A DNA stretch of 60,330 nt from a virus (Duplodnaviria > Caudoviricetes). The notes under the pieces were generated by a model that made no database searches, had not been told where the DNA came from, and worked only from the letters and a program-made list of their open reading frames with translations. The stretch lies in IMG/VR virus record IMGVR_UViG_3300025120_000051, positions 1 through 60,330 of that record; one strand, written 5' to 3'. Positions within the stretch are counted from its first letter, which is position 1. The number at the start of each line of letters is the position of its first letter. This document shows positions 6,080-44,069 of the stretch, piece by piece. Made by a program: the position numbers and the translations under genes.

Positions 6080-6111
6080 TACTATATAAATACGACTATA
6101 TGTGGATAATA
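6080..6111 (+). promoter_or_regulatory. Putative early promoter 1 (TAC-N5-AAATACGA-N8-GGATAATA)
   Basis: One of 7 co-oriented copies with invariant spacing. Confidence 0.8.
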
Positions 6112-6210
6112 ATAATATGAGAATAAATACTAATAATAATATAGAAGTTGTGAGAGTGTGCGCTGTACTACTAATACAATTCCAAATGTTAAACAAAGTA
6201 TATACTTTTA

Positions 6211-6242
6211 TACAATTCATTTACGAAGCATAATGGATAATA
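6211..6242 (+). promoter_or_regulatory. Putative early promoter 2
   Basis: TACAATTCATTTACGA-N8-GGATAATA. Confidence 0.75.
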
Positions 6243-6274
6243 ATAATGTAACAAATAATAAATAAATAATAACT

Positions 6275-6502
6275 ATGTCAAATTTAATTTCAAAGAGATT
6301 CGTAATAAGAAAATCTCTAATCGGTAAAAACCAAAACATCACTGTTAACTTCAAAAATGGTAAAACAGTAACTTACAATCACGATAAAGTGTATGAAGTA
6401 ATGAAGTCAAAACTAGAAACTATGAATTGTTTCGTTAAGTACAAATCTTACACTTCTTCAACTTCAATTCCAGTAATTGCAAGAGAATTAGTAAGTGCGT
6501 AA
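6275..6502 (+). CDS. Hypothetical early protein
   Basis: 75-aa ORF with A-rich leader downstream of promoter 2. Confidence 0.75.
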   Translation: MSNLISKRFVIRKSLIGKNQNITVNFKNGKTVTYNHDKVYEVMKSKLETMNCFVKYKSYTSSTSIPVIARELVSA

Positions 6503-6612
6503 GTACTACACAAAGTCGAGTTAGTTCCACTTGTTCCCTCGTATAATCAAATATGAATAAGTAAAAATGGTGACTCACCGAACCAGAATAGTACGCAAAC
6601 TGGTGAGATCAA

Positions 6613-6655
6613 TGTAGTAATGGTTTATGTGAGTTCGATTCTCACACTACAACTA
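6613..6655 (+). ncRNA. tRNA-minihelix-like element
   Basis: TGTAGT/ACTACA acceptor-like stem next to T-arm GTGAG-TTCGATT-CTCAC; 10-nt linker replaces D and anticodon arms. Confidence 0.55.
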
Positions 6656-6744
6656 TGAATTTTATAATAATAATAGCAACAATGATAGTACTACAATTAG
6701 TACACTTGTTCACAGGAATTAAGTCAAGCGACTTTACAAACTAA
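6655..6744 (+). CDS. Small hydrophobic protein, 29 aa
   Basis: MNFIIIIATMIVLQLVHLFTG...; below ORF-track cutoff. Confidence 0.45.
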   Translation: MNFIIIIATMIVLQLVHLFTGIKSSDFTN

Positions 6745-6753
6745 AATAATGAT

Positions 6754-6909
6754 ATGAAGAAAACGATAGAAGAAAAAATAGTAAAAGGTTTAGTAGTGTA
6801 TACTTTGTTAATAATAGCAATATTTACACTCTCATCATGCGGTAGTACTCAATATGGAATCTGCCCAGCGTACAGTAATCACAATACAAATACGACAGTA
6901 AACGGATAA
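6754..6909 (+). CDS. Small lipoprotein, 51 aa
   Basis: MKK... hydrophobic core, lipobox LSS-C, mature part CGSTQYGICPAY... Confidence 0.7.
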   Translation: MKKTIEEKIVKGLVVYTLLIIAIFTLSSCGSTQYGICPAYSNHNTNTTVNG

Positions 6910-6911
6910 TA
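6880..6911 (+). promoter_or_regulatory. Putative early promoter 3
   Basis: CACAATACAAATACGA-N8-GGATAATA. Confidence 0.8.
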
Positions 6912-6992
6912 ATAATATAAATAAATAAATATGTACGAAGCGATAGAACACTGGAAAGAATATATAAAAGAAAAACAATTAAATAATAATAA

Positions 6993-7127
6993 ATGAAAAG
7001 AAAATTTCAACACTTAGCAGTCAACACAATACTAATTGGATTAACAGCGATATTCGCTTTCGGTTTTGTAAACATACTATATCACTTAGTATTTAATAAT
7101 CCTGTAATAACTTACGGCGGATGGTAG
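6993..7127 (+). CDS. Small single-pass membrane protein, 44 aa
   Basis: MKRKFQH followed by a hydrophobic helix; below track cutoff. Confidence 0.55.
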   Translation: MKRKFQHLAVNTILIGLTAIFAFGFVNILYHLVFNNPVITYGGW

Positions 7128-7234
7128 AATTACTAGACAAAATAGCACAAGAAGAATATGGCGAGTTTGGTTTCACTACGTGTACTGACGAGCAACAACT
7201 AGAAATAATAACTAATAATTTAATAAATAAGTAA
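7121..7234 (+). CDS. Small hypothetical protein, 37 aa (..IAQEEYGEFGFTTCT..)
   Basis: Overlaps preceding stop; protein-like composition. Confidence 0.55.
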   Translation: MVELLDKIAQEEYGEFGFTTCTDEQQLEIITNNLINK

Positions 7235-7366
7235 TATGCAGTATATTTTAACATGCAATAACGGAAAGAAAATAGATATGTCACACTACATACTATTACA
7301 AATGGAAAAGAAAATAACTAGACAAGATGTTCTTGACAGAATAGAGTTCTATAAAAGTACAAACAA

Positions 7367-7579
7367 ATGAGATATAGTAAATCAAATATGAGTTGGGAAC
7401 AAGCATTTAAAGAATGTGCTGACTCAATCAACAAACACGCTTACGAAATGAAAGTAACTAATGAGTTATTTCCAAGAGAAGACGGTACACTATGGGTAAA
7501 CTGGATAGGTTTATCTCAACAAAATAGAGACAAAGTGTATAAACAATGTTACGATACAAATACGAATAAAGCAGGATAA
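7367..7579 (+). CDS. Hypothetical early protein
   Basis: ORF track; dense co-oriented packing. Confidence 0.7.
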   Translation: MRYSKSNMSWEQAFKECADSINKHAYEMKVTNELFPREDGTLWVNWIGLSQQNRDKVYKQCYDTNTNKAG

Positions 7580-7581
7580 TA
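7550..7581 (+). promoter_or_regulatory. Putative early promoter 4
   Basis: TACGATACAAATACGA-N8-GGATAATA. Confidence 0.8.
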
Positions 7582-7586
7582 ATAAT

Positions 7587-7769
7587 ATGAATAAATTAAA
7601 ACTAACAAACTACAGCATCGCAGGTATACCTCAAACAGCTATACTATCTATTAAAGATGAAATAATTACACTAAATTTAACTACAAACAGTAGCTACTGG
7701 GACAAAGAAATAAAGCAATACAGGTCACTATCTACTTTTTACACAATAAATAATAGAATATATGCATAA
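7587..7769 (+). CDS. Hypothetical early protein (possibly leaderless)
   Basis: ATG starts 7 nt after the GATAAT of promoter 4. Confidence 0.65.
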   Translation: MNKLKLTNYSIAGIPQTAILSIKDEIITLNLTTNSSYWDKEIKQYRSLSTFYTINNRIYA

Positions 7770-8013
7770 AAAACAAAAATACTTTCACGAATTATCTTTA
7801 TACGAGATGTTTAAGCAACATGATCACACTTATCAATACGCTGATGATCACTCTTACTGGAAACGAGGTACAGAGCAGAAAAGAATAATCAATGAAAAAA
7901 TAGAACAATCAGGTGGTTGGAATAAAGAAATGGTAGCAGAGTGGAACAAATTCTGTCCAAAACCAATGCAAATGTCAGAAGAATGGCTAGAAAACTACTT
8001 ATTAAAACAATAA
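7762..8013 (+). CDS. Hypothetical early protein (HDxxYxYxDD motif)
   Basis: ORF track; overlaps previous stop. Confidence 0.75.
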   Translation: MHKKQKYFHELSLYEMFKQHDHTYQYADDHSYWKRGTEQKRIINEKIEQSGGWNKEMVAEWNKFCPKPMQMSEEWLENYLLKQ

Positions 8014-8017
8014 ACAA

Positions 8018-8575
8018 ATGAGAACAATATATAAAGGCGATGCTCGCTATGAAAAAATCAAAGAGCAAATGGATCTACTAAGTATTACTGATGTAACTAC
8101 TGAAAGACAAGTGCTAAATGGTACGATAGTTTGGCGATTACCATACAAATCAAGAGGTAATTATGTAGAATATGGTGCTTTCGCAAGTGGATATGTAAGA
8201 AATCAAGGTAATCAGTGTCACTCTAATTGGCAAATCAACAAAAGATATGTTGGTGAACCTGAATATTATCCTGACTATGTATGGTGTGATAAAACAAATC
8301 AAAGTGTAAAAACAGGTAAGTTTAACAGGTTTTACAGTAAGAAATGTGTTACAATACCCATAGAAATTGACAGATTAGAGTATTTGATGAAGTATATTGT
8401 TAAAAATGAGTTTATCAAGCGTGCTAAAATGTTAGAAACAGATTTTGTACCAAAGTGGAAATATGATGACTTAAAAAACTCAGCAAAAGCTCTGGAGCAC
8501 GTTACTAACGCATACCATAGACCACCAAGTGAAGTAAAAGTGATAATAAATGGACATAGATATAACGTAATATGA
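8018..8575 (+). CDS. Hypothetical early protein
   Basis: 185-aa ORF, A-rich leader. Confidence 0.8.
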   Translation: MRTIYKGDARYEKIKEQMDLLSITDVTTERQVLNGTIVWRLPYKSRGNYVEYGAFASGYVRNQGNQCHSNWQINKRYVGEPEYYPDYVWCDKTNQSVKTGKFNRFYSKKCVTIPIEIDRLEYLMKYIVKNEFIKRAKMLETDFVPKWKYDDLKNSAKALEHVTNAYHRPPSEVKVIINGHRYNVI

Positions 8576-8682
8576 GTCCGTGGGAAATAGTAAAACAAGT
8601 AGCGGGTCACATTTATACTGATGAACAGATAGATGAGATGACTTTGGCAGAATGTGAAGAGATATTAACAGCAGAGTATTAA
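8572..8682 (+). CDS. Small acidic protein, 36 aa
   Basis: ATGA overlap with previous gene; MSPWEIVKQVAGHIYTDEQIDEMTLAECEEILTAEY. Confidence 0.55.
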   Translation: MSPWEIVKQVAGHIYTDEQIDEMTLAECEEILTAEY

Positions 8683-8819
8683 TAAAAATTAAAAAAAGTA
8701 ATTAACAAATGAAATTCAACATACAAGATAGAATAGTGCTATATTAACAGCAGAGTATTAATAAAAATTAAAAAAAGTAATTAACAAATGAAATTCAACA
8801 TACAAGATAGAATAGTGCT
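8662..8819. repeat. Perfect 79-bp tandem duplication
   Basis: 8662-8740 is identical to 8741-8819. Confidence 0.95.
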
Positions 8820-9000
8820 AGACGAAATGGTAGACACTTTCAAAACACAGATGATCAAGCATCATCACGAATCAGAGTTAGATGGTAAAAGACCAATAAT
8901 AACTAAAGAGTATTGGCTTCAAATGATAGACGAAGTACAGATTAAAATCGACAACTTCACGACAGTTAAAGCATTAAAACAAAGTAATAAATATAGATAA
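8788..9000 (+). CDS. Hypothetical early protein
   Basis: ORF track. Confidence 0.7.
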   Translation: MKFNIQDRIVLDEMVDTFKTQMIKHHHESELDGKRPIITKEYWLQMIDEVQIKIDNFTTVKALKQSNKYR

Positions 9001-9001
9001 T

Positions 9002-9190
9002 ATGAGTAAAGGTTTTTACATAGTAGAACTTAGAGAATATACAGAGTCAGGCAACTACATAGAGTTTGACGCAGAATTTGAAACTAAAGAAGAGGCAATA
9101 AAGTATGCAAAAGAGAATAAAAACGATCTTTTTGATATACTAGAGTATAAAAACGGTAGAACACACACTCCTAAAAGCATAAGCATATGA
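9002..9190 (+). CDS. Hypothetical early protein (FETKEEAIKYA motif)
   Basis: ORF track; abuts neighbours. Confidence 0.7.
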   Translation: MSKGFYIVELREYTESGNYIEFDAEFETKEEAIKYAKENKNDLFDILEYKNGRTHTPKSISI

Positions 9191-9540
9191 GCACAGAAGA
9201 ATTAAAAAAAATATACTTAGAACATTATGGTTCTACGTTAGATACAATAGATTACAAAGGTGGATATGATTTTGTAATGAATCAAGAATATACAGCAGAT
9301 GGTCACGATGTGTTTTTATGCAGCGATGGTATATCTCCGGTGAGTATAAGTGAAGACGTATATTATTACGCTCATGATTTAACAGATATACTTAAAAATG
9401 CTATACACAACGGTCAAAAAATATACTGTGGTGAGGAGATATATGACGAGTGCTACATTAAAGACGAATGGAAAGAATGGTGTCTTGAAGATAATTTAGT
9501 TGATTATAATGATAATGACGAGTTAGTTAAGTGTGAATAA
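9187..9540 (+). CDS. Acidic hypothetical protein
   Basis: ATGA overlap; D/E/Y-rich, 117 aa. Confidence 0.75.
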   Translation: MSTEELKKIYLEHYGSTLDTIDYKGGYDFVMNQEYTADGHDVFLCSDGISPVSISEDVYYYAHDLTDILKNAIHNGQKIYCGEEIYDECYIKDEWKEWCLEDNLVDYNDNDELVKCE

Positions 9541-9541
9541 A

Positions 9542-9573
9542 TACAATTCAAATACGATAACAGTCGGATAATA
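9542..9573 (+). promoter_or_regulatory. Putative early promoter 5
   Basis: TACAATTCAAATACGA-N8-GGATAATA; wholly intergenic. Confidence 0.85.
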
Positions 9574-9578
9574 ATAAT

Positions 9579-9791
9579 ATGACAAAATGTAAATGTAATA
9601 ATATAATACCTCCGCAGCGGATAGCACTCGGTTATAAAGTTTGTGTTAACTGTAGCAGTACGGAAGCATATGGCTGTGTTAATATAACATACCATAAAAC
9701 GGGCAATACAATTCAGATATTACCAAAAGCCCAAGCTGCCAGAATACGTAAGCTATCCGCTCGTAGAGGTTATGGCACATGCCTAAGATAA
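9579..9791 (+). CDS. DksA/TraR-type C4 zinc-finger protein
   Basis: CxC..IPPQRIALGYKVCVNC matches the C..IPxxRLxA..CxxC finger pattern. Confidence 0.6.
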   Translation: MTKCKCNNIIPPQRIALGYKVCVNCSSTEAYGCVNITYHKTGNTIQILPKAQAARIRKLSARRGYGTCLR

Positions 9792-9804
9792 TAAGTAAAT
9801 AAAT

Positions 9805-10017
9805 ATGAGTGATTCAATAAAAGCATGGCACGAAATGCAAGAAGAAAATAAAGTATCTATATCCGTAGATAAAGATTTAATACTAGTAAATAAACTACTA
9901 GCGTTGAGTAACGAGCAAAAGCTATTAGATATAGATCAAGCTTTAAAAGAATATGAAGGTAATGTTGTAGATAAATGGCAACTTATCAACAGAATAGAGA
10001 AAATAATGTCGCGTTGA
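9805..10017 (+). CDS. Hypothetical protein
   Basis: ORF track. Confidence 0.7.
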   Translation: MSDSIKAWHEMQEENKVSISVDKDLILVNKLLALSNEQKLLDIDQALKEYEGNVVDKWQLINRIEKIMSR

Positions 10018-10081
10018 GGCGTGACAAACTCCTTCACGGGAATACACGGTTGCGCTCGTGCTGAAAACAAGTGAAGGATTA

Positions 10082-10167
10082 GGGAGTGATAAGGTAAGTA
10101 AAGCGAATAAATAACAGGTTACCGAGTCCAAATGCTTTAAACGGCGGTTCGATTCCGCCCACTTCCA
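10082..10167 (+). ncRNA. Miniature tmRNA-like RNA (tRNA-like domain)
   Basis: Acceptor GGGAGTG/CACTTCC with G3:U70 and A73; stemless D-loop; P2-like helix TAAAGCG/TGCTTTA; 3-nt AAC linker; T-arm GGCGG-TTCGATT-CCGCC. Confidence 0.7.
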
Positions 10168-10265
10168 CAATAAATGAATCCGAAGAGGTCAGTGTGCTTG
10201 ACACTGAACAAAACAAGCGAACACATGTCAGGCGAGTACTTCACAGAAAAACTAACGATGACTAA

Positions 10266-10386
10266 TAACTAGGTATGGTTAAGCGATTACCGGAGCGTAA
10301 GCTCGATCGTGGTGCGCAGAGCGTAAGCTCGATCGTGGTGCGCAGACTACCGACGGGTATGAGGTTCGATTCCTCACTAGTTACTA
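10266..10386 (+). ncRNA. tRNA-like RNA with non-canonical core
   Basis: TAACTAG/CTAGTTA acceptor-like stem; T-arm TGAGG-TTCGATT-CCTCA; internal GAGC-GTAA-GCTC hairpin; no recognisable anticodon arm. Confidence 0.6.
10293..10344. repeat. Perfect 26-bp tandem duplication
   Basis: GAGCGTAAGCTCGATCGTGGTGCGCA twice. Confidence 0.95.
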
Positions 10387-10404
10387 ACTTTAAATTAAAT
10401 AAAT

Positions 10405-10587
10405 ATGATTAGTAAAAACGAGTTTCAAGCGTACGTAAACGTACAAGAGTCAGGTGTAACAAACATGTTCGATGTAAGGACAGTATCTTCTCTATCTGGT
10501 TTGTCAAAAGCAAAAATAATGGATATAATGAAAAATTATAGCCAGTATCTAGGTACGTACATTTTAAATACGAATGAAGTAGGATAA
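10405..10587 (+). CDS. DUF5049-like small protein
   Basis: VQESGVTNMFDVRTV motif. Confidence 0.6.
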   Translation: MISKNEFQAYVNVQESGVTNMFDVRTVSSLSGLSKAKIMDIMKNYSQYLGTYILNTNEVG

Positions 10588-10589
10588 TA
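10558..10589 (+). promoter_or_regulatory. Putative early promoter 6
   Basis: TACATTTTAAATACGA-N8-GGATAATA. Confidence 0.8.
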
Positions 10590-10608
10590 ATATAAACAAA
10601 TAAATAAT

Positions 10609-10842
10609 ATGTCAAAATTAAAAACCGTCTACGACAATCTATTGCCCGACGTTAAATCAAGCTTGCAGGCTAGTGCTAGAAAGTACAACTCTGCTAAAAG
10701 ACTTAAGTATACTCTTATGTCTAAAATGATGTGGTCAGAGTTGACAATCGATGAGATGAGAGACGTTGTAACTTACGGTAACTTAAACAGTTGGGAATTA
10801 GACTGTTACAGCTTTATGTATGGTGAAAAAATCGTGAAATAA
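10609..10842 (+). CDS. Hypothetical protein
   Basis: ORF track. Confidence 0.75.
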   Translation: MSKLKTVYDNLLPDVKSSLQASARKYNSAKRLKYTLMSKMMWSELTIDEMRDVVTYGNLNSWELDCYSFMYGEKIVK

Positions 10843-11099
10843 TGAAAGCTACAAAACTACCCAAGTGGTTTAAAGGTTCTAAATATGAATCTGGAGACAC
10901 AGTAACAAATCCGTTTAGCGGAGAAAAATATGATTTAACAGGCGAAGAATTAAGTATGTACGATTTTATAATTGGTTGTCAATTAGTAATGGAAAAATTA
11001 CCAAGATCAATATCAGCAACCCACGTTAATGACTTTCAAAAAGGTCTTGACTGGTTCAGAAAAAATAACGCCAAAGCATATATGGTCTTACTAGACTAA
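10842..11099 (+). CDS. Hypothetical protein (C-terminal AYMVLLD)
   Basis: ORF track; 1-nt overlap with previous stop. Confidence 0.8.
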   Translation: MKATKLPKWFKGSKYESGDTVTNPFSGEKYDLTGEELSMYDFIIGCQLVMEKLPRSISATHVNDFQKGLDWFRKNNAKAYMVLLD

Positions 11100-11114
11100 T
11101 TATGCTATACATTT

Positions 11115-11186
11115 TGCGCGGTAGAGCAGCGGTAGCTCGTTGGGTTCATATCCCAAAGGTCGGAGGTTCGAACCCTCCCTGCGCAC
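11115..11186 (+). tRNA. tRNA-Met(CAT), initiator type
   Basis: Full cloverleaf; GGG/CCC at the base of the anticodon stem and A11:U24 are initiator hallmarks; CCA not encoded. Confidence 0.92.
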
Positions 11187-11200
11187 CTAAAATAATAAAT

Positions 11201-11545
11201 ATGAAGAACACAGATTTTGATATCTTAGCAAGCAAGTTAGCCGACTTAGCTAAAGATACTATGAAGAAAAAAGGCCCAGAATACACTAATGAGCACACGG
11301 ATGTGCTAAACAACTTTAAAGCTACGGGTAAAAGACTAAACATCTCACCCATCAAAGTGTGGAGTATATTCATGGACAAACAAATACAAAGTATAATGGC
11401 GCATGTCAATAATCCTAATCTTGATAAAGCTGAAAGTATAGACTCTAGATTTGCAGATGTAATCAATTACTGTTATCTAGGTAATGCTTTGTTTAACGAA
11501 AGAGATTCAGGAGCAATTAAAGAAGTATTCAACGATGTCAACTAG
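11201..11545 (+). CDS. Nucleotide-modification-associated (Nmad1/DUF1599-like) helical protein
   Basis: KKGPEY..DVLNNFK..K..ESIDSRFADVINY pattern; start moved to 11201 because the longer ORF spans the tRNA. Confidence 0.55.
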   Translation: MKNTDFDILASKLADLAKDTMKKKGPEYTNEHTDVLNNFKATGKRLNISPIKVWSIFMDKQIQSIMAHVNNPNLDKAESIDSRFADVINYCYLGNALFNERDSGAIKEVFNDVN

Positions 11546-11891
11546 AGCTCAGGTTAGATTCGCGACACGCGAAGAAGGCGTTTCTTTTAATGAACACCCA
11601 GATAAAATACACGCACAATTCTACGTGCACCATGATGGTTATCCTGAAGGATTAGGCCTGCAAATAGCTTGTTCAATATCAAAAGATTCACCTGTTACAA
11701 GTTTCTATGGTGAAATAGAACACGTACAGGATATGCACGGTGATTTAGATTATATATACTATATATGGTCTAACTATGACAAAGAAACTTGGATAAGTAT
11801 ATTTGAAACTTACGAAAATAAGTGTATATTTGTAGGTAAACCAGATAGGTTAATAGCAAAATACAAACTAAATACGAACGAAGCTGGATAA
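11535..11891 (+). CDS. Phage protein with YxHxDGYP motif
   Basis: MSTRAQV start; YVHHDGYPEGLG. Confidence 0.7.
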   Translation: MSTRAQVRFATREEGVSFNEHPDKIHAQFYVHHDGYPEGLGLQIACSISKDSPVTSFYGEIEHVQDMHGDLDYIYYIWSNYDKETWISIFETYENKCIFVGKPDRLIAKYKLNTNEAG

Positions 11892-11893
11892 TA
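11862..11893 (+). promoter_or_regulatory. Putative early promoter 7
   Basis: TACAAACTAAATACGA-N8-GGATAATA. Confidence 0.8.
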
Positions 11894-11898
11894 TACAT

Positions 11899-13910: not shown

Positions 13911-14512
13911 AAGATAGAAACATGAAATGGCTGAATGATAACCGCATCGTATATAGGAGAGATCCAATTACGGACAAGGCCACTGTATCTAATAACCAAT
14001 ATGACTTTTATCAAAACGGCACACATGAATGTTATCATTTATTTAACAGTAAAGCTAAAATAACTACATATAAATCATTAAAATGGCATTTTTTAGTATT
14101 ATATTACTTAAATAGTAATGACGATTTGCAAGATGTGTTTAAATTTATTGCGGATAAAGACAATGGCTTTGTAACTTTTTTTATGAAGCAAAACGTGTTG
14201 GAAAACATGATAAAAGACGTTATTAAGCAAGGTGGTGAACCTCCAGCAAACAAGCTACGTAAAGTAGTTTTTAAAATGCACAGTGGTCTAAGTATTAACG
14301 AGAAGCTTAGCATTGTGGGTAAACTAATAGGTAGAACATCTCAAGTTGATGACGAGGCAATATACCAATGTATGATTGACTTGCACGACATGGGAAAAAA
14401 GATAACAATAAGTAAGCTTGCAAATTTACTAAACTGTTCGTCAAGAACTATCCATCGCAACATGAATAAAATTTTAAAACAAGAAAAAAAACAATTAAAT
14501 GAAGAGTTATAA
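13904..14512 (+). CDS. DNA-binding protein with C-terminal HTH
   Basis: ITISKLANLLNCSSRTIHRNM. Confidence 0.7.
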   Translation: MSQDRNMKWLNDNRIVYRRDPITDKATVSNNQYDFYQNGTHECYHLFNSKAKITTYKSLKWHFLVLYYLNSNDDLQDVFKFIADKDNGFVTFFMKQNVLENMIKDVIKQGGEPPANKLRKVVFKMHSGLSINEKLSIVGKLIGRTSQVDDEAIYQCMIDLHDMGKKITISKLANLLNCSSRTIHRNMNKILKQEKKQLNEEL

Positions 14513-15269
14513 TATAAAAAACTATGTTATATATAAAACAGAGGTAGCAAAACTAATTCACGCATTGCCTAGTTATGGAACAGATTATCATAATTATTCA
14601 CGCGAGCAGTTAATTACTTTATTTTTACCTTTAGTAGAAAATATAGCTAGAAAATTTTCAACAAGTCAACAAGCTTCAGGCGTTATGACAATTATGGACC
14701 TAATACAATGTGGTAGCATAGGTATAACACAAGCTGTAGATAAAATAGACTGGGCAAGATTGTCTGTGTCAGAGGATAAAGAAAAAACAATGAAATCTTT
14801 TCTATCTAAACGAATAAGAGGTGCAATACGTAGAGCTGTAGATATTAATCGCGGTGACATGAGAATACCCGAACATAAGTTAAACGAAATTCGCAAAAAT
14901 TTTGGTAAAGATAAAAAAATGGTTGCAATGTTTTTTAATAGTATATTTTTAAGCATTGACGAGAAACCAAAAAATGGAAATGAAGACGATATGGTATACC
15001 AAATACCAGACAAGTCAGAGCCATACAACGTAGGTTTGTTAAACGCTTATTTAGACAGTTTGCTAAAAAAACACTTATCAGAAAAAGAGTATCAGGTTTT
15101 AGTTTTAAGCTATGGTTTAGATTGTGAAAAACAACCAGCTAACGAAATAGCAAAAAAACTAAACATAGAAGGCAGTAGTGCCTACGTGAGAGTTTCACAG
15201 CTTAAAAAACAAGCTGTAGAAAAACTAATTCAAAACGTAGACCACTCGCAAGTGCTTGATTATCTATAA
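14499..15269 (+). CDS. Sigma-70-family RNA polymerase sigma factor
   Basis: Region 2 LPLVENIARKF..DLIQCGSIGITQAVDK..RIRGAIRR; region 4 LSEKEYQVLVLSYGL..EIAKKL..RVSQLKKQAVEKL. Confidence 0.9.
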   Translation: MKSYNIKNYVIYKTEVAKLIHALPSYGTDYHNYSREQLITLFLPLVENIARKFSTSQQASGVMTIMDLIQCGSIGITQAVDKIDWARLSVSEDKEKTMKSFLSKRIRGAIRRAVDINRGDMRIPEHKLNEIRKNFGKDKKMVAMFFNSIFLSIDEKPKNGNEDDMVYQIPDKSEPYNVGLLNAYLDSLLKKHLSEKEYQVLVLSYGLDCEKQPANEIAKKLNIEGSSAYVRVSQLKKQAVEKLIQNVDHSQVLDYL

Positions 15270-30758: not shown

Positions 30759-30786
30759 TATTATTACTTGTTTTAAATCTATTTTA
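30759..30786 (-). promoter_or_regulatory. Putative middle/late promoter TAAA-N15-GTAATAATA
   Basis: Directly upstream of the barrel-to-endolysin operon. Confidence 0.6.
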
Positions 30787-33700
30787 ATTTTTTTTACGCC
30801 TAACATTAACTCTTCGTCTACTTTTTGTTCTAGAGTTCGATTTAACCCTGCGTACTTCTTCTGGGCGCATAGAATCATATAGCTTTTCAAGTTGTTCATC
30901 TGAAAGACCTAGCTCCCATTCACTCCAACCTGACAACAAAGCTGCTTTAGCCCACATTTCGTTATCTTCGTCCATAGCATCTTGAACATTTTTCATCTTC
31001 TTAAGTATTCTATCCACTGGTAGATTAGCTGTAGCTGACAACACTTGAGCTCCAGCCATGTAAGCTGGATTGTCTAAACCAAATCCACCTTCTTTCATTT
31101 CATCTAAATCGTAATCTAAAGATCTAAACGCGGATCTTACTTTAGTAACTTTAGATGATATAGGTGGCGCAAAGTCTAACGTTTCCCAAGCGGCATTTTC
31201 GTACTTTGGATTACCTTTAGAATGTTCTTGTGATAACTTAAATAAAACGTTTTTAACTGTAGACACCGCAGCACCGCCAATTCCAAGCCCCCTTAATTGA
31301 GAATCAAGCATACCGTTTATCATATTTGATGATTTATCAATAATCTGTTGTTGATCATCAGGGTCTTCGTCAAACCCAATAGCAAACATTGCTTGTTGTA
31401 AAGTGTTAAATATAAGGTTTTGCACAAAGCCATAGTATATTATTTTAGATAAATTACTTTTTGCATCTCCTCTCCCGTTAGCTAAATCTTGTATTGCTCT
31501 TTTTTGTAATCTAGTATACTGCATTGGTGTGTTAGCAAAAGCTAAAACAACTCTACCTAAACCAGAGGCTTGTTGCGCTGATATTCTATCAGGTCTACTA
31601 GACTGTTGAGACTCTTCGGTTATTTCTCTAAAATCTCTAAAAGCTTTTTCTTTAGCTTTAACCTCTGACAAACCTTCTTTTAAGTAGCTATTTATTCTGT
31701 TTCTATAAAAAGAAGCACCACCACTAGATATTGCAAAACTATCAGCGCCTCTTGTCATTACAAAACCTTTGTTAAGTAAATAAGATATAGCTCCTTTAAC
31801 ACCACCTCTACTAGACATGTCTGCTATTTCTGATTCGTTAATATTTATCTTTAAACCATCACGCCTTTGCACTAAGTAATCTGAATTAAACAACTCTTTG
31901 AAATCTTTCCAATATTGTTTTTGATTACCAAAAGCTTTAGCTGCTGCTAAAGGGTTGTTATCTTTGAAGTTTACGTAGTTTATAGCTGATATAGTTTGTA
32001 GTACGGCTGATCTAGAGTTTAAGAACATAATAGCACCAACAGAGTTGTTTGTCCAGTCTAACACTTCGTTTTCTAGTCTTTGGAATACTCCACCTAGCTT
32101 TTTTCTGTTAGAACCACTTTCCATTCTTTGTAGTATATTTTCTAAGGCTTTTCTAGCATTACCACCATATGCTGCTTCATACTTATTTAGGTTTGCTTCA
32201 GAAAAAATTTCATTTTTATTTTCAATCCACTGTTGAAGATGTTTTTTTCTTTTAGTTGTATTAATACCTTCTATCATATCAGTAGTAATAGTTCCGGCTA
32301 ACCAACCAACTCCAGGTTTAGTGTAAGCATCTCCTTTGTGAATAAGCATTAATCTATCAGCAAAGTCTTTTAAATCTTTGTTTGATTTAACAAATCCATC
32401 TATTTGTTTTAAATCTCTTTTAGATATACCAGGTATTTCCATTTTTTGCTTATTCCAAATATAAACTCTTAAAGCTTGTTCTTTTGTATAACCAGCAGCT
32501 GCACCTTCTTTTAACTTATCTCTCAAGCCTTTTGGTACAGATTTGATTTCTTTTTTTAAAGCATGAAAATCTTTCATTAACTGATGCCTTTCTTTAGTTA
32601 TTGCATTTTCACCTCTAGCGTATGGATCTAGTAAGTTTGTTTTGTACCATGCCATTTGAGCATCTCCGGTTTTACCCTTACCTAAAGTAGGGTAAATTAA
32701 GCCCACAAAGTCTTCAGCAGTTGGTGGGATCCAAAATTTAAACTTACCCTTAGTAGCGCCTGCTACCTCACCTTTTGCTTTGCTATACACTTTCTCAGCT
32801 CCAATACCAGTTTTGTTTTCTAAAACATTATTAAACTCTTTACCAAGATCTCTACTCATTAAAGCTTGTTGAACTTCAGATTTAACATCTAGGTTTTGTA
32901 AAATATCTTTAACAGCTTTAACATTTTTAATTGCATCATCAGCAAAGTAAAAATCATTATAACCCTCTATATATTTATCTTTAACCCAATCAGCCTTCGC
33001 TTTTGCTGCTCCGTTCTCAAGTCCAGTTATATTTTCTATAGGAATTTCTAATCCAACACCTTTTAAAAATTTGTTAATAGCTATAGCGGATGCTTGAGGT
33101 CTAGCTGTTAATACAAATATATTCTTATTCCCAAACTTACCTTCTCTTTTGACAGCTAAATCAAACAAAGGCCCTTTCTTACCATCAATAACCTTGTTAA
33201 ATTCTGAAAAATCATACTTAGCACCTTGCTTTGTTAGCTTAGCATCTTGTTTAGCAAACTCTGTTGCGTTTATTTTAAACTTATTACCATTAGGCATGGT
33301 AACAATTATTTGACTATTAGTTCTAGCTAAAGTGTCATCAAAATCAAAAATACTTATACCTCTTTTTTCTTTTTTTCTGTTTCTACCTTCTTGCAGTATC
33401 TTATCAAGCCTGTTTGCATCTACTATTTTTTCTAAGTTTTTAGCCTGTTGCTTGTATTCAGAAGACATTATCTCTTGATATAACGTCTTTTTAAATTTAC
33501 TACTAACACTATATATGTTTTTAGCTAGCTCTAGGTTTTGCCCAAATCTAAATATATCAGCATTACTAGTTCTAGCGTCTATTGTTTCTCCTTTTGAGTT
33601 TTTGATAAAGTCTATCATATTAAATTCAGCTAATCTTCCATAAACACCTCTGTATTTACTCAAGCTTTTACCACCTTCAACACCCCACATGTTTTCAGCA

Positions 33701-36700
33701 ATTAATAATGCAGTTTTTGATAAAGTCTATCATATTGAACTCAGCTAATCTTCCATAAACACCTCTGTATTTACTTAAGCTTTTACCACCTTCAACACCC
33801 CACATATTTTCAGCAATTAATAATGCTGACTCTAAACTTTGCTCACTACTTGATTTTAAGTGCTCGTACTTAGAGTATTTTTTAAATACATGTGTTTCAG
33901 CTTCATTTTTAAAGTTTTTACTTTTAAACTTTGTGAAACCACCAATAGCGTTATTATAGCCACCAGCTTTTACAAGCTGTTTAACTTCTTTTTTAATATT
34001 AGGGTTATTAAAATAACCTTGTTTTGGAATCCAAAAATAACTTCCTGGAGATAAGTTTCTTTCACCTTTGGTTCCTTGTTGTGAGTTTTCTTTCTTTAAC
34101 TTAAATACATGGCCTAATCTATTATCTTTAATTTTTTGCGTTGAACCACTATGAACCCAATGCTCTAACGTCCTGTTAAACGCATCGTAAAAAACATCTA
34201 ATTGCTTTGCACCTGGGTTTTCTTTGTAATATTCAGCAAGTTGTTCTCTACCTTTTTTACCACCTACTGCAGCTGCTTTTTTCCAAGCAGTAAAGTTGCT
34301 AGCGTTGTAAGCTCCTTTTATTGACTTCCAGTCTATCGACTCTACTAGTTCAATAATTTCTTTTGGTAAAGGGTTTTCACCTTTAACAGATGTAGAAGGT
34401 TTTGTTAAAGCTTCTTTGAGTGAGTTTATTTCTTTAGTTAAAGAAGCAGCATTACCTTTGCCTAAAGTTTTGTTGTGTAAACCAACAAGATCCATCATTA
34501 ACGCCATATTACCGTCAATTTTATTCTGTGTAATAGCTGGCCATAAATCAAATATAGTTTTAGAATTTTTAATATAATTTCTTCTTAAACCTTCACTTTC
34601 TTTAGATTGAAATTCTTTAGGACCCATGTTAGCGTACTCATGGTTAGTCATAACATCTGAAAATTCAGAACCTTTAACGCCAGAAACAAACCTAGTTTGA
34701 GCATCAGCTCCAGCTAAAGCTTTATTAGCTATAGATAAGTCTAATAAATCTTTAATTCTATCATATGCTTGTTCGCCATATTTTGCAATAAAAGCTTTTG
34801 GGTTTCTCTCATGTAATCCCATCGCTGCTAATTGTTCAGCTTTCTGTATTTTATTAGTACCGAAAGCTTTGCCAAGATCATTAGAATTTAGTAATTCAGA
34901 CTTACCACCAGCAATTTGGTTGTACAAAGCATCTCTAGCTGATTGATCTCTTAATTCAGGGTTAACAGTTTCGTTACCTGGTTTTTCTAAATAATTTCTA
35001 ACAACTTGATTTGTTATAGCTCTACCTGTTTCAGATATTAAAGCATCTATAGCTCTTATCTGTTTACTTTGAGCTTTTATTTTAGTTTGTTTAAAATCAA
35101 CCTTACCTTCTGGTGTTAAAAATATTCCTAGCTTTTCTAAAAACTGTGTTTTATTTAAGTTTTTTATTTTATTTTGAACTGGTAACCCTGCGGTTTTACC
35201 TGTCTTACTTGACGATGCTTCTGCTGCTACACCTTTTCTACTAGCCGCATTATAAAGCAAACCGTTTAATAACGAAGGTTCTATCATTGTAGATAAACCC
35301 TCTATTTTAGATTTACCTGTTTTTAACATAGCGCCGTGAGGCAATAAGTCATACAATGTTTTCCAGTTTTCAGCTATGTATTCTGATTTTTGTTTTGAGT
35401 TTTTACTAGACTCTCCTTTAACTACATCAGTTCTACCTCCAAACATCTCCATTGTTATATCTGGCTTTAAATCTAATAAGTCTCTATAGTTATATTTTTC
35501 TATGTTTTCAATATCAATCTTACTTTCTATAGATTCAACGTGCTTATCTGTTAGTTTTAAACTTTCTTTTAAGTTTATTAAGCCAGCCTCAGCTTGTCTT
35601 GGCCCAACACTTCCACCAGATGAAACACCACCTTCAAGTTGTAAGAAACTACCATCCGCGTCTATGCTAACAGTTTGTATTTCTCTTCCTTGAGTAAACC
35701 TATCATATATAGCTCCAGATCTTCCACCTCCAAAACCACCACCACCATAAAGACCTTGGATTAAGTATGATCCAAATTCACCTTTGTCAGGAGTGTATGT
35801 TTTAGATAGCTTAACAACTTCTAATAATGTTTCTTGTTTAAAATCAGATCTTTCACCTCCTTTAAATGGATCAAACTTGTTGTTTACAAAGCTTTCTACA
35901 AGTAACATGTTATTAGCTATAAGTCTTCCTTCTAAAGCTAAAGAACCACGGTTGTCTAGATTTTTCTCTTTCTCAAGCTTTCTAGCATCAAATAACTTAT
36001 CAGAAAGATCTTTATTTTTTTGTATTGTTAATTCGTTTTTAACATCTCTAGAATTCAAAGCTTCTCTTTGTGAGTTTTGTTGAATATCTAGTTTTAATAA
36101 ATCAACTTCATTTAATTTATATCTACCATCTTCAACTTTAAGATCTGATAGCGGATTATCTTTAACAAACCTAGTTAGTTTGTTTGAATACCCAACATCT
36201 AAACGTATATCTCTAGTTAATCTCGCTACATACCCTATAAAATCTTCTGCTGTTTTAATTTTCGGTTGGTAACCAGGTATCATTTCTTCAAAGAAACTAG
36301 TGAAATTAGCTTTAACCTCTTTTACAGCACTAGTAGCATATAGTTCGTAATACAAGCTTGGGTTTGAAAAAGCCTCTAACATGTAAGCTAGATATTCTTC
36401 GTTTTTAATTTCACGACCTCTACCACTTTCTAGCAAATCTATTATTTTCTTTAAAGACTCTGGAGCTTTATCATAATCTTTAGTTAATGACTTACCTATT
36501 TGTTTATCATACTTATGAAACACTTCTGCCATGTTTTTCTTAAACTGTAGTGTCATACCTGGGTTTGCTGATTCTATAGCTCGAAAAGCAGCGTGACCAA
36601 TCATCTCGTGTATTTCTTTACCTTTATAACCCTCTTTGTTGTATACTTCTTTATTAAATATTATAAGGTCTTTACCTCCTTTTCCTCCACCTTGTAGAAA

Positions 36701-39631
36701 CTGAGCTGGGCTCATGTTTTTACCACCGTGAAAGTTTTTATTTTTACCATCTACAAATCTAACATCATACCCTTTGTACAAAAACTCACCTTTTTCGTTT
36801 CTACCAACAGCTTCTTGTATTATTTTTTGAAAAGGCTCTGTGTATCTTTTTTTAAAGTTAGATTCAAACTCAGGGTTTTTAGTATCTAATTCATTAGCCA
36901 TTTCCTCTAGTATAACCATTTGAGCAAATGTGTCTTTAGTTTCTTGATAACCATCATATTTAGATTTCTCCTCTTTAGATAGTTCTTCGTATTTTCTGCC
37001 GTTTAAGATTTTATCTTGAGCTTCTTGAAGTTCTAAAGACGCTCTTTGTTTAGCACCAGTTGTCATTAAATCTACACCTAAACCTACTTTACCGTTAGGC
37101 TTAATTCTAAATGCTTTAACATTGTGAGCTCCAACTAAACCGAAAACAAGAGAATTAGTAACAAGTCGTTGTGTTACATCTGACATATCACCATACATGT
37201 CGTTAAACTCTGCTTTAAAATCCTTAACATCCATAAAATCTTCGTAAGCTAACTCAGTGATGCTAGCTAACTCCATAGAAGCAGCACCAATTGGGCCTGC
37301 TTTAACAACTTTGTTGTGTAGGTTGTTTAACCATTTAAACCTTCCAGTAATGTTAAAATACGGTTGAGCTAAAACACCACCTGTGTAAAAAGCAGCACCT
37401 GATGTAGGTTTAAAACCAACACTTTGCATTTTAATTTCTTCCACAGCTACCATACCTAGATGACCTAACATTTTTTTAACTCTACTACCTGATCTTATCA
37501 TTCTACCTAAAGCAGCTGGAATACCAGTTCCTTTTGTTATAGCACCAATAACAGCTAGCTCGGTAAGCATTGGCGCGAAATGACCAACACCTTCTGAAAC
37601 GTTTTCAGACATACTTCTTGCTAGTTGATCTTTTTGGTCATCAGTAAATTGTAATGATTTTACCTCGCCTTTTTCTATTTTATCTTTATTCTGTATATTG
37701 TAATCTGATTGAAACTCTTGAATTTCATCTAATAAAAACCTATTAGTGTTTGTTTTACCAGTTATTTTAGCTAAATTTTCATCAGCTTCTATTTCAGTAT
37801 TACCAAAAAAATGAGTTCCAAAAGCTTTAACTCCAGTATTAAACATACTACCAAAAAAACCTGATTTTTCAAGCTTAGATGGATCTATGTCTAATTCGTG
37901 AAGTTTAAACATTGCTCTTCTAGCTCCTAGATTATCATCTAAAGCAGCGTCGTGAGTTTCTATCCAATCTTTATCTTCTTTACTTAAAGCACCACTAGCT
38001 CTGTTAAGTACTCCAAACCCATCAGCATCTCTACTAGATAATCCATTTTTATGCATTGTTGCATAATCACCTTCCCAAACGTAAGTAAAATCTACTGTGT
38101 CATTCTTTAAATTCTCTTTGAATGAAACGTCTACGCCAGGTAAATTTGAAAGTTTCGACGAAGGGTATGATGTAGTAATATTAATCTTTATATTTTTATC
38201 TTTTGCCTCTTGCTGTAAGTTAAAATACCTTTTGAATAAACCATCATAATGAATATCCATAGCTTCACGATCGCTAAGCATTGCATTACCAGCCTTGTTC
38301 TTTACAAGCGCGATGTTGTTTTCTTGAGAATTTTTAGTTAACTTTGCAGATGCAGCTATTCTGTCAGCAGACGCTTGGGTGTAACCTTGTTTAACATAAT
38401 AATTACTACCAAGCTCTTCATCGTCAAGCGCTATGCCTTTTATAACGTTTTCTGATGCTTTTATTATTTTCTCCTCTACTTTTATTTGCTCTTTTAAAAC
38501 TTCAACGTCTGCACCTCCAGCGTCTAATCTTGCTTCTAAATCTTTTATTTTATCGTAAGATTTTCTAAGTATTTTTACATTTAAATGTTTTATCTGAGCA
38601 TTTTTATTACCCTCACCTTCTACAACGTTACCTTGGTCATCTCTTTTTATACCTAGCTCTTTATCTATAAAGTTTTTATAATAAGGAGTTTCAAATACTT
38701 TTTTGTCTTTTTGATCAACTTGAGCCTTAACAAAGTTCCAGTATTCTTCTTTTTCTTTAGCTTCAACAAGTGTTGTTTGAAACATTCCTTTAGAAGCTAC
38801 ACTACCGTTTATAAATTTAACAAACTGATCTTTAGTAAGTTTAGTTCCGGTTTTTTCCTTAATTTGCTCATAAAGAGTGTCATTGATTTTTTCTCTATTA
38901 TCACCCATCATTACATCAAGCTTATTAGTATCGTAACTATGAGCTTCACCTATACCGTATTTTGCAGGGTTGTCGTATATTTCTCTTAAGTTGTTTTTGG
39001 TAACGTCTGCCAATTTGTTAACCTCTTCTGCAGTTAATGGAGTTTTTATATTGTTGTTTGTGTAATTAGAAGTAGGAATACCCATACTGCTAGCGCCGTA
39101 CGATGTTCTTGGTTTTGGTGTTGATTTATCTTGAGTTGTTACAGTTGGGTAATCTTGAGGTAATAAGCCTGTTTTTTTAAATGCTTGCTTTTCACCCTCG
39201 GTTGAAGTATTATTTTCTTCTATAAACTTAATAAAACTATCGTATTGAGAATCTTGTTGATCCCTTTCATTTCCGTAATTCCAAAATGATTTTAAAGTAA
39301 ATGTTTCAGACTTTTTGTTAGGACCAGTTACACTTATTCTGTCAAGACCAGGTGTAGACTCCTCAAACTTATAAGGTAAGTCTTTGTATTTCTCCTTTAA
39401 CTTCTCAACAACCTTTCCCTCAGCATCACCACCATCTCTATCTCCAATATCAAAATCATCCATTGATATATGGTTATACGGTGATGGTGCTTCTGTGTTG
39501 TCACTTTCTGTTTTTTCAACAAAGTCAGTTACACCAAAAGCTTCTTTAAACTCTTCTATGCTCATACTTAAGTTAGCAGCTTCTCGTTGAAGGTAACTTA
39601 AATCAACTTGTCGTCCGTTTATTTCAAACAT
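30784..39631 (-). CDS. Giant internal virion (ejection) protein, ~2910 aa once the 115-bp duplication is removed; appears as ORFs 33695-39631 and 30784-33690
   Basis: Both ORFs share MWGVEGG...DFIKN through the duplication; zincin HEMIGH, sigma-2-like segment, HAD DFDDTL, helical C-terminus; follows two other internal-protein-like genes. Confidence 0.75.
33597..33826. repeat. 115-bp tandem duplication with 4 synonymous differences
   Basis: 33597-33711 versus 33712-33826; same peptide encoded; causes a frameshift. Confidence 0.93.
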
Positions 39632-42227: not shown

Positions 42228-42731
42228 TTATTTATTGTTAATATATTCTTCATATTCTTCATATGTTATACAACATACGTCTTCTTCTATTTCACGTATG
42301 TCTTTTTTATTTTCTGTGTTTGGAAAAACATTATACCAAATAGTTGTTTCATGCGCGTAAACAACTCTTTTGTCTCCTGGTGTAGAAACTATATGACAAG
42401 GAGCATAAAAATCCTTAACACCTTGCTCATTAGCTATTGTCACATGACCATTTAATAAAAATATCATGTGTTTGTGTTTGTATATAGCTCCTATAGATAA
42501 AGTGCCTTTAAACAAAAATATTTGCCTAATATATACATTGTCCATAAAAAAATTCCTAATAGGAGTTATTTTACTTTCTGTTGAAACTATCGGTTTATCT
42601 TTAGTACCAGCTTCAACATAATTACTATCCTTAGACACATCCATCATTGTCTGTTGTAGTTTGTTAACCGTATCTCGAAAGTTAACAGAAAGCTCGTTCA
42701 TAACAAACGGCCTTATTTTTTTTTCAATCAT
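42228..42731 (-). CDS. Cupin-fold protein
   Basis: YIRQIF..KG...GAIYKHKH..LLNG..AP..STPGDKRVVYAHETTIW pattern. Confidence 0.6.
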   Translation of the reverse strand: MIEKKIRPFVMNELSVNFRDTVNKLQQTMMDVSKDSNYVEAGTKDKPIVSTESKITPIRNFFMDNVYIRQIFLFKGTLSIGAIYKHKHMIFLLNGHVTIANEQGVKDFYAPCHIVSTPGDKRVVYAHETTIWYNVFPNTENKKDIREIEEDVCCITYEEYEEYINNK

Positions 42732-42737: not shown

Positions 42738-44069
42738 TTAAACTATTACTTCACTACCAACAGAAAATAGTTCTGCTTTAGTAGCTGATACACCTTCATT
42801 TGGATGCCAGTATTGCATTTTAACGTTAGCAAAATAACCCTTAACACCAGTTGTGTTAAAATTAGAGTTATCTTGAAAAAAGTCTCTAGCTTTATTTCTT
42901 AATTCACTAAAATAAAAACCTTCTTTTTGAACAAAACCTATAGTCTCTAAACCAACTAGTGTACCTTCTTCAGGAACAACATAGCAAGTATTTATATCGT
43001 TATAAGCATTGTAACCACTTATAGTGTTACCACCAGTTTCAAAAACTTGCATATTCCAACCTGTTGTTCCTTCGTAACCAATAGTTAAAAAAGTTTTAAC
43101 AATTTCAGGTTTATCATTAAAAACAAACTCTACAAAGCTAGAATAATTAGTGGCGCTTCCTACAAAATTACCTCTTGGCACGCTTTCACTGTGCTGTAAA
43201 TACAAGTTGTTACCTTGGAAAGTGTAAAATTCATTATTTAAACTAATACCACCTCTCACTTTGTAAGTATAAAATGATGTCCAGCCTTTTGACCTTTCAT
43301 CGTAGCATAGCGTTGCGTAATCTTTCACGTCTACGTTGTTTACATTTATACCGTTTTCGATAGGATAATTTACAGGATCTTTAGTTTCTAAAGTTAAACA
43401 ATACTTACCCTTTTGCTCGTCATAAGCTCCATATATAGTATCACACACTTTCAACGCATCTTTAAACCAGTCTTTCATACCAGCATCCGAAATTGGAGTT
43501 ATGCCATCTTTTGATAACCTTAAAATTGCTCCTCTTCTTTTATCAGCAAAATATTTTCTATTTCCATAAGAAGTGAAGCTTTCAGGGTGTGTGCTAATAC
43601 CAAAATTACCAGCATAAGGTGTGATCTGACCTATAACTATTTTAGCAGAAGCAGTTAGAGGTTGTCCTTCAGCTGTAAATATCGCGTCTTTATCAATAAG
43701 GGCTCTATTAACTTTGTTTTCTTGAAATATAATTAAATTAGTGTCTTCAGCGTGAAGTTTTTGTATACTCCCTTGAGCTATGTCAACAGCTCTTGTTATA
43801 TCTTCTCCACTTGGGAATTGATTTGATTCGTTAACATTTGTTCTTGAATTAAATATTCCAGAATAAGTCATTGCATTTTTTCTAACCTTTTGAGCATACT
43901 CTTGATCGGTTATATGTGCTTTAACACCATAATCCATCACTTTACCATTAAATTCACCTTCTATTCTAGCCTCCTCTATGTGGTACTTGCCTGGTGCCTC
44001 GTTTGAAGCAGTTCTTCCACCGGCTAATACTATTGAGTTAAAGTAAGATATTTCTAATATTGCTCCCAT
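42738..44069 (-). CDS. Tail stabilisation/nozzle protein, C-terminal part
   Basis: GSIQKL, FGISTHPESF..YFADKRRGAILRLS.DG.TPISDAGM, GWTSFY. Confidence 0.65.
   Translation of the reverse strand: MGAILEISYFNSIVLAGGRTASNEAPGKYHIEEARIEGEFNGKVMDYGVKAHITDQEYAQKVRKNAMTYSGIFNSRTNVNESNQFPSGEDITRAVDIAQGSIQKLHAEDTNLIIFQENKVNRALIDKDAIFTAEGQPLTASAKIVIGQITPYAGNFGISTHPESFTSYGNRKYFADKRRGAILRLSKDGITPISDAGMKDWFKDALKVCDTIYGAYDEQKGKYCLTLETKDPVNYPIENGINVNNVDVKDYATLCYDERSKGWTSFYTYKVRGGISLNNEFYTFQGNNLYLQHSESVPRGNFVGSATNYSSFVEFVFNDKPEIVKTFLTIGYEGTTGWNMQVFETGGNTISGYNAYNDINTCYVVPEEGTLVGLETIGFVQKEGFYFSELRNKARDFFQDNSNFNTTGVKGYFANVKMQYWHPNEGVSATKAELFSVGSEVIV

Follow-up and report, generated by a model that had tools for sequence, protein, structure and literature searches.

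Three routes are known by which phages take over host transcription: the injection of whole RNA polymerases, the injection of enzymes that modify the polymerase, and the synthesis of sigma or anti-sigma factors after entry. Phage T4 gp55 is a late sigma factor possessing only sigma domain 2 (σ2), which works with the host core enzyme on a -10-like element alone; it is synthesized anew as a free late protein and depends on both gp33 and the sliding clamp. The virion RNA polymerases of crAss-like (phi14:2 gp66) and N4-like phages are considered to come into the cell along with the DNA and to handle first transcription (bioRxiv 10.1101/2020.03.07.982082; PMC10172136). For polyvalent proteins, PMC5512222 gives processing by zincin-like peptidases as a theme and proposes that these proteins "jump-start transcription," among other roles. 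The subject of this analysis is a σ2-like domain embedded in a giant protein of a marine phage, IMG/VR virus record IMGVR_UViG_3300025120_000051. The window, that is, the whole stretch of DNA analyzed, comprises 60,330 bases (34% G+C) and is by estimate ~84% complete. The domain, and the shorter segment within it that was singled out by a first-pass annotation, are located as follows.

35681..36025, minus strand: σ2-like domain, residues 1203-1317 of a 1978-aa open reading frame (ORF), recognized from an AlphaFold2 model, VIA-align, hhalign, sub-threshold Pfam matches and the ESM Atlas
35760..35935, minus strand: segment of residues ~1233-1291, which resembles regions 2.1, 2.2 and the start of 2.3 in translation and by hhalign

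When all lines of evidence are taken together, residues ~1203-1317 are best read as a σ2 module, a reading which we consider very probable. They would represent a true but very divergent domain 2 of the sigma-70 family, standing alone without detectable σ3 or σ4 within a multi-domain protein of ~2,900 residues. The peptide quoted in the first-pass annotation is present in the 1978-aa ORF where it had been placed, residues ~1233-1291 reading LEGRLIANNMLLVESFVNN...GEFGSYLI in the translation of the minus strand. The family was enlarged by iteration with hidden Markov models (HMMs) to 111 sequences, and a 97-sequence profile was compared with an alignment of six E. coli sigma factors and the phage's own sigma. 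In this comparison hhalign matched 70 columns, corresponding to RpoD regions 2.1-2.3, with a probability of 67%, a P value of 5.2e-5 and a score of 36.0, whereas the controls (one reversed and 30 column-shuffled profiles) scored at most 10.5. A longer profile gave 79.7% (P 1.5e-5) against the same sigmas. The register is exactly that proposed at first pass, running through regions 2.1-2.3 without a shift.

The Pfam model Sigma70_r2 (PF04542) matches the fragment over profile positions 21-54 of 71 with an E value of 0.0059 and 16.8 bits, the gathering cut-off for this family being 24 bits. A six-frame scan of the entire record reveals two PF04542 matches only, of which the phage's own sigma gene ranks first and the fragment second (16.5 bits). 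Of 37 family members, 4 give sub-threshold matches to Sigma70_r2 at the corresponding site, namely two of the 15 aligned relatives and two of 22 more distant ones (P0054, E 0.0034; P0088, E 0.00081), and these independent matches fall in lineages that share less than 35% identity. Among the named look-alike clusters returned by the ESM Atlas for residues 1203-1320, 21 of 30 carry PF04542, with a top score of 0.95. Together with the modeled fold, these results indicate that the resemblance to sigma region 2 noticed in the initial annotation is more than chance.

AlphaFold2, run on a 15-row alignment of the σ2-like region, predicts six helices over residues 1203-1317 with pLDDT block means of 81-93, followed by a disordered stretch; the helices match sigma regions 1.2, 2.1, 2.2 and 2.3/2.4. 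A search of 48,161 chains using VIA-align gave Z scores of 9.9-8.0 to many σ2 domains over 88-104 aligned residues. By title, rows 1-16 and 18-24 are sigma chains; nothing clearly unrelated is listed before rank 28, and many ECF sigmas rank below the top σ2 structures. Representative neighbors are these.

4x8k_A: M. tuberculosis SigA σ2; Z 9.9, rmsd 2.9, 102 residues aligned
7lq4_A: WhiG; Z 9.7
5h6x_B: RpoS; Z 8.9
8hkc_E: σ32; Z 8.4
7d7d_F: chain F of the T4 late-transcription complex (row 12); Z 8.1, rmsd 2.9, 93 residues aligned
3ugo_A: T. aquaticus σA σ2 with -10 DNA; Z 8.0

Foldseek is in agreement insofar as 47 of its 48 listed rows are sigma chains or RNA polymerase holoenzyme entries, at E values of 0.3-1.8. 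Since helical models often reach such Z values, the uniformity of the VIA-align list was weighed above the Z value itself. As an internal control, residues 1318-1600 were modeled likewise (mean pLDDT 66) and produced no σ3 or σ4 neighbor, the best Z being 3.2 and the best Foldseek E value 1.3. No σ3 or σ4 was thus found in the modeled stretch downstream of the σ2-like domain, and a Pfam scan of the 1978-aa ORF gave no Sigma70_r4 match. A σ2 fold, on which the first-pass annotation had staked its proposal, is therefore what the model predicts. Its companion suggestion, that VSIDA (residues 1321-1325) corresponds to region 3.2, finds no support; the peptide lies in a disordered linker with pLDDT below 50, and the per-column confidence of hhalign is near zero beyond σ2. 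Modeled together with residues 205-360 of the β′ subunit of Flavobacterium johnsoniae, the domain gave an uncontrolled score of 0.30 against a mark of 0.32, which counts neither way.

At the residue level use was made of 19 homologues of the giant protein, all of 2560-3092 aa, which were recovered in a word-indexed search with residues 1100-1500. Alignment A1 contains these homologues at full length, and alignment A2 the σ2-like region. RpoD numbering is ORF numbering minus 7, and the segment singled out at first pass aligns to RpoD 379-436. The best-conserved positions, placed by the hhalign register, are listed below together with a loop seen in alignment A2 and in the model.

N1241: RpoD N383, invariant or near-invariant in the family
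G1258: RpoD G398, invariant or near-invariant in the family
K1274: RpoD K414, invariant or near-invariant in the family
Y1279: RpoD F419, invariant or near-invariant in the family
Y1289: RpoD Y430, invariant in 19 of 19 homologues and in 92% of the 97
L1294: RpoD I435, invariant or near-invariant in the family
35720..35749, minus strand: glycine-rich loop YGGGGFGGGR, residues 1295-1304

We take RpoD K414, F419 and Y430 to line the pocket for the flipped -11 adenine and also to be part of the domain core. D1263, Q1266 and E1267 (D-x-x-Q-E) fall on RpoD D403, Q406 and E407, with a leucine at the position of N409; these four RpoD residues are presumably those of region 2.2 that bind the β′ clamp helices. 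RpoD Y430, W433 and W434 are, on our assumption, the region 2.3 aromatics used for -10 melting, and it is at the site of the tryptophan pair that the glycine-rich loop breaks the helix of regions 2.3/2.4 (between model helices 84-93 and 103-115). A diverged copy of the domain in locus L056 lacks this loop. The best match of alignment A2 in the Protein Data Bank (PDB) is the fusion-peptide region of influenza HA2 (E 0.019), a weak match that is made by the glycine-rich loop and the stretch after it and probably reflects glycine-rich composition alone.

A number of observations weigh against assigning this region to the sigma factors. No family member reaches the 24-bit Pfam cut-off, the best (P0088) attaining 19.6 bits, and a Z score of ~10 is, by VIA-align's own note, within the range that helical models reach through a common arrangement. 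Among 177,635 PDB sequences, a 15-sequence profile of the region finds no sigma at E values of up to 10, and a profile of the whole protein finds none at E values of up to 1; nor does phmmer recover one there from the fragment. When 1.84 billion representative proteins were searched with a profile, 75 matches resulted, all of them giant proteins or fragments, without an ordinary sigma. The core-binding positions drift across the 97 members, position 403 being D or E in 62%, position 406 Q in 12% and position 407 E in 43%. The tryptophan pair of region 2.3 is absent, the positions of W433 and W434 being occupied by Q/K/G and N/A/F ahead of the glycine-rich loop. Lastly, the domain could be detected in only 18 of the 80 related loci, with some weaker cases besides, and family HMMs do not recover it from the syntenic giant proteins of MW202828.1 (uncultured), Maribacter phage Panino and Flavobacterium phage elemoF (both cultured), all three of which are related to this phage through the portal. 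The region has not been filed as a canonical sigma, because it falls below the Pfam score and lacks the tryptophan pair; yet it is σ2 in fold and in register.

The gene that contains the domain is split in this record, and its parts and motifs are as follows.

33695..39631, minus strand: 5′ part of the giant-protein gene, the 1978-aa ORF (ORF list; 19 homologues)
30784..33690, minus strand: 3′ part, a 968-aa ORF, continuous with the 5′ part in relative P0002
33597-33711 and 33712-33826: 115-nt unit duplicated in tandem, with 97% likeness between the copies, found by a repeat search and as a repeated peptide
36593..36610, minus strand: HEMIGH motif (H1008, E1009, H1013), a zincin-like signature by motif reading
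33331..33348, minus strand: FDFDDT, HAD-like motif I by motif reading
33100-33111, minus strand: LTAR, HAD-like motif II by motif reading
32929-32946, minus strand: FADD, HAD-like motif IV by motif reading

In the closest relative (P0002; 2910 aa, 100% identical over the queried part) the 1978-aa ORF reads through into the 968-aa ORF; the split in this record is due to the 115-nt tandem duplication, which shifts the frame. The record contains two more tandem duplications, both exact, of 79 nt (8662-8819) and 26 nt (10293-10344), and all three could be assembly faults or real variants. In alignment A1, H1008, E1009 and H1013 (HExxH or HExxGH) are invariant in 19 of 19 homologues, as is E1079 some 70 residues on (36395-36397). 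This arrangement of H-E-x-x-(G)-H plus a downstream Glu suggests a zincin-like peptidase inside the giant protein; a Pfam scan of the 1978-aa ORF gave no match to the motif. All fixed residues of FDFDxT (F, D, F, D, T), the whole of LTAR and both aspartates of the DD pair are equally invariant (19/19) and look like motifs I, II and IV of HAD phosphatases, FDFDDT being read as DxDxT; these had no Pfam match at E values of up to 1 and no PDB sequence match. Whole-protein scans of the 1978-aa ORF against Pfam and PHROGs gave nothing useful, and no RNA polymerase family was matched by the giant protein in Pfam scans. The 1978-aa ORF has no D.D.D string, and the two in the 968-aa ORF are not conserved. 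In this C-terminal part, D2716 is retained in 17, D2718 in 12 and D2720 in 9 of the 19 homologues; given that these strings are poorly kept, no crAss-type DFDxD polymerase site is seen, and the protein has no conserved DxDxD triad, in line with the earlier remark that no catalytic DxDxD motif of an RNA polymerase was noticed.

Three relatives (P0018, P0036 and P0039) carry an inserted Zeta_toxin/AAA_33 kinase domain, from which it follows that domains are exchanged in and out within this giant-protein family. A TNQxVR motif is found at 34997-35017 (minus strand; residues ~1539-1545), where N1541, Q1542 and R1545 are invariant in 19 of 19 homologues. It lies in a long helix of the domain following the σ2-like module, and a fold search with that domain gave no neighbor. 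Weak leads from the giant protein to LPD38 (0.79) and LPD39 (0.78) were obtained in the ESM Atlas. The family also possesses a conserved C-terminal module, which is present in at least 563 IMG/VR contigs. The σ2-like region is carried by 75 cluster representatives in the search of 1.84 billion proteins. The two halves of the giant protein had no match among 50,697 GenBank phage records by tblastn; a search for related loci found no relative with the σ2-like fragment alone and did find relatives with A1.

The surrounding genes form a virion module on the minus strand.

56133-58349, minus strand: terminase
53721-56132, minus strand: portal
51058-52509, minus strand: capsid-like protein
42738-47944, minus strand: muzzle protein, two adjacent ORFs (1286 and 443 aa) matching Pfam crAss_MUZ and phrog_14478
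42228-42731, minus strand: tail fiber

The 1286- and 443-aa muzzle ORFs match the N- and C-terminal parts of one PHROG/Pfam family (crAss-type muzzle). Past the tail fiber, the minus strand contains ORFs of 228, 625, 1978, 968 and 405 aa and then a thioredoxin and an M15 peptidase. The giant-protein gene is flanked by tail genes on one side and lysis genes on the other. Portals of podophages infecting Flavobacterium, Cellulophaga, Maribacter and Tenacibaculum share 41-51% identity with the one encoded here. The host is therefore probably a member of the Flavobacteriia, and the phage is read as a podophage of this group with a crAss-like virion module. At 3632-5197 and 58569-59159 (minus) it encodes a GroEL-like chaperonin and a GroES-like protein, as is also the case in cultured flavobacterial relatives. 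In phicrAss001, cargo proteins are located after the tail genes, an arrangement paralleled by the succession of terminase, portal, capsid, muzzle, tail fiber and large ORFs found here (PMC10172136). The syntenic gene of a cultured Flavobacterium phage (3694 aa) is annotated as "structural protein," and a literature search for virion proteomics of cultured relatives gave nothing usable.

Based upon this synteny, the giant protein may be a polyvalent-type cargo protein, which would exit the capsid together with the DNA. Release of the σ2 module may fall to the zincin-like motif, and the module would dock on the host core RNA polymerase at the β′ clamp helices, where every σ2 binds. Once docked, it could either compete with the host primary sigma or carry the remaining parts of the cargo protein, along with the incoming DNA, to the polymerase. 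A σ2-derived docking module of this type, excluding host sigma or recruiting the cargo protein and DNA, is the role to which we would give somewhat less than an even chance. What the data show directly is the likeness to σ2 in sequence, profile and predicted fold, the absence of a detectable σ4 and how the family is distributed; packaging, ejection, cleavage and binding to core are inferred, the packaging and injection from gene position only. The fuller scenario, in which a sigma domain in the cargo protein has replaced the injected crAss-type polymerase and, once freed by the zincin, seizes core for the first transcripts or excludes the host sigma, in either case ahead of all phage gene expression, strikes us as improbable.

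The first of the alternatives is that a σ2-like helical module has been reused without any link to RNA polymerase, for instance in binding single-stranded or forked DNA at the entering end, or in capsid packing. The drift at the presumed core-binding residues of region 2.2, the glycine-rich insertion in place of the tryptophan pair, the coming and going of the domain among related giant proteins and the lack of ordinary sigmas in the deep profile search are all consistent with such a history. Against it, the profile match keeps its register through regions 2.1-2.3, and in the subclade of the window and in two distant members enough of region 2.2 survives for a Pfam match. Nor is any protein with a σ2 fold known to us to act elsewhere than on RNA polymerase, though no search was made for one, and on balance we regard this alternative as unlikely.

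The second alternative is that the domain acts as a minimal sigma in the manner of the σ2-only T4 gp55: once ejected, it would read GATAAT-like early promoters with the host core and so start phage transcription ahead of any phage protein synthesis, after which the phage's own sigma takes over. This is close to the role put forward at first pass, in which the domain redirects host RNA polymerase to seven early promoters. The elements in question are the following.

6088, 6219, 6888, 7558, 9550, 10566 and 11870 (region 6088..11896), plus strand: seven copies of AAATACGA-N8-GGATAATAATA, found by motif search
14499..15269, plus strand: free-standing phage sigma of 256 aa with regions 2 and 4 (Pfam Sigma70_r4, 25.9 bits; Sigma70_r2, 22.3 bits)

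Both had been reported at first pass and both are real as sequence features. The seven motif matches, all on the plus strand, compare with 0.03 expected, and none of 100 shuffles reached seven; the sigma gene possesses both Pfam regions, its Pfam match rising to 26.4 bits with the neighbors in frame in the six-frame scan. The gene belongs to the run headed by the last motif copy (11870) and is downstream of that copy. The σ2-like domain was also considered as a copy of this free sigma, which is ruled out by an hhalign probability of 0.2% and a BLASTP E value of 39.

In relatives the motif takes a longer two-block form, TACAAAC-N-AAATACGA-N8-(G/A)GATAATA, and in the window as well as in loci L094-L102 the element is often followed at 5-25 nt by a start codon, a hint that leaders are very short or missing. 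AAWTA-N11-GGATAATA occurs at least three times in 8 of 40 related records, whereas the reversed control pattern has one match in all 40; G002 and G012, which are without it, carry AGATAATA in its place. The Bacteroidota promoter consists of a -33 TTTG and a -7 TAnnTTTG. A perfect host-type TTTG-N19-TATATTTG is located at 11802-11832 (plus strand), just upstream of the seventh motif and of the ligase/phage-sigma gene run, this pattern having 11 matches in the window versus ~4 expected.

That the domain initiates at these motifs is suggested by several features. The best-conserved family residues map to RpoD K414, F419 and Y430, the pocket that we take to hold the -11 adenine; the seven motifs contain GATAAT and do not resemble the Bacteroidota promoter; the T4 late-transcription chain is among the structural neighbors; and the last motif copy heads the gene run containing the sigma gene, such that a sigma-dependent class would need a starter. 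The TTTG-N19-TATATTTG sequence could itself be that starter, and the tryptophan pair is missing from the domain. Moreover, the blocks TACAAAC and GATAAT are ~17-18 bp apart, a spacing that suits a sigma with σ4, which the free sigma has and which was not found beside the domain. All 12 near-complete relatives have the free sigma, with its σ2 and σ4 regions, at 57-80% identity, while the σ2-like domain is far less conserved (26-37% identity or undetected) in relatives whose motif is nearly unchanged. One relative (G020; 100% complete, six motif copies) has no detectable σ2-like region in its giant protein (hhalign P 0.0087 over 14 columns). In Cellulophaga phage phi14:2, the host polymerase reads promoters with -35/-10-like blocks (bioRxiv 10.1101/2020.03.07.982082). 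Across the 40 related records, a correlation of motif with domain could not tell the two candidate readers apart, since nearly all carry the motif (as a G or A variant) and the free sigma, and the domain cannot be detected reliably. For reading the seven motifs, the virion domain is thus no better a candidate than the free sigma or the host enzyme. Redirection of host RNA polymerase to them by the σ2-like domain is the less likely reading, the comparison leaning against it, and we hold a minimal sigma to be rather unlikely.

The remaining alternative, a chance resemblance in which sigma-like spacing of hydrophobic residues misled AlphaFold2 and the language model without common descent, accords with the sub-threshold scores against curated models, with the absence of sigmas from the profile searches of PDB sequences, with Foldseek E values of 0.3 or worse and with the thought that one abundant family may have been learned by AlphaFold2 and by the ESM features alike, but is very unlikely in view of the profile-profile P value of 5.2e-5 with 31 controls far lower, the independent Pfam matches in lineages less than 35% identical, the uniform list of structural neighbors and the adjoining segment as negative control.

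With the σ2 module as the preferred reading, the domain can be set beside the described systems. It resembles σ2 of the sigma-70 family (4x8k, 3ugo) in its predicted fold, with 102-104 of ~115 residues aligned at Z 9.9 and 8.0, in the order of its helices and in having conserved residues on RpoD N383, G398, K414, F419 and Y430. It differs in being embedded at about residue 1200 of a protein of ~2,900 aa, where a sigma factor is a protein of 20-70 kDa, and in having no σ3 or σ4 found, a glycine-rich loop for the tryptophan pair and scores below the Pfam cut-off.

The giant protein shares with the polyvalent proteins (Iyer et al. 2017) its very large size, the joining of unrelated domains, a zincin-like motif and the kinase inserts of its relatives, the enzyme domains being recognized here from motifs only; unlike them, it matched none of their signature Pfam domains. 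The word "sigma" is absent from the main text of the survey of these proteins (PMC5512222), and no account of a virion or polyvalent protein that carries a sigma-like domain came out of a literature search. Like the virion RNA polymerases of crAss-like and N4-like phages, the giant protein is a large protein encoded past the tail genes, and its gene occupies the position at which crAss-like phages have those of their virion polymerases (PMC10172136). Those enzymes, however, carry a DFDxD catalytic motif, which is metal-binding and set in a double-psi β-barrel in the crAss-like case, and are polymerases themselves, whereas the giant protein has no conserved DxDxD and its sigma-like part would have to borrow the host core enzyme.

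With T4 gp55 (7d7d_F) the domain has in common that it is a phage σ2 module without a detectable σ4, and the two are structural neighbors (Z 8.1); it differs in being part of a giant protein encoded among virion genes, with no partner known, where gp55 is free and works with gp33 and the clamp. This is not a rare family: its C-terminal module is encoded by at least 563 IMG/VR contigs. Core polymerase binding, if shown, would make the domain a simple, testable system for sigma region 2 working or blocking alone. By analogy, the domain would work most like T4 gp55 if it initiates, and like a sigma decoy if it does not; and a pre-made sigma domain delivered in a virion protein would, if true, add a fourth route to the three by which phages are known to take over transcription.

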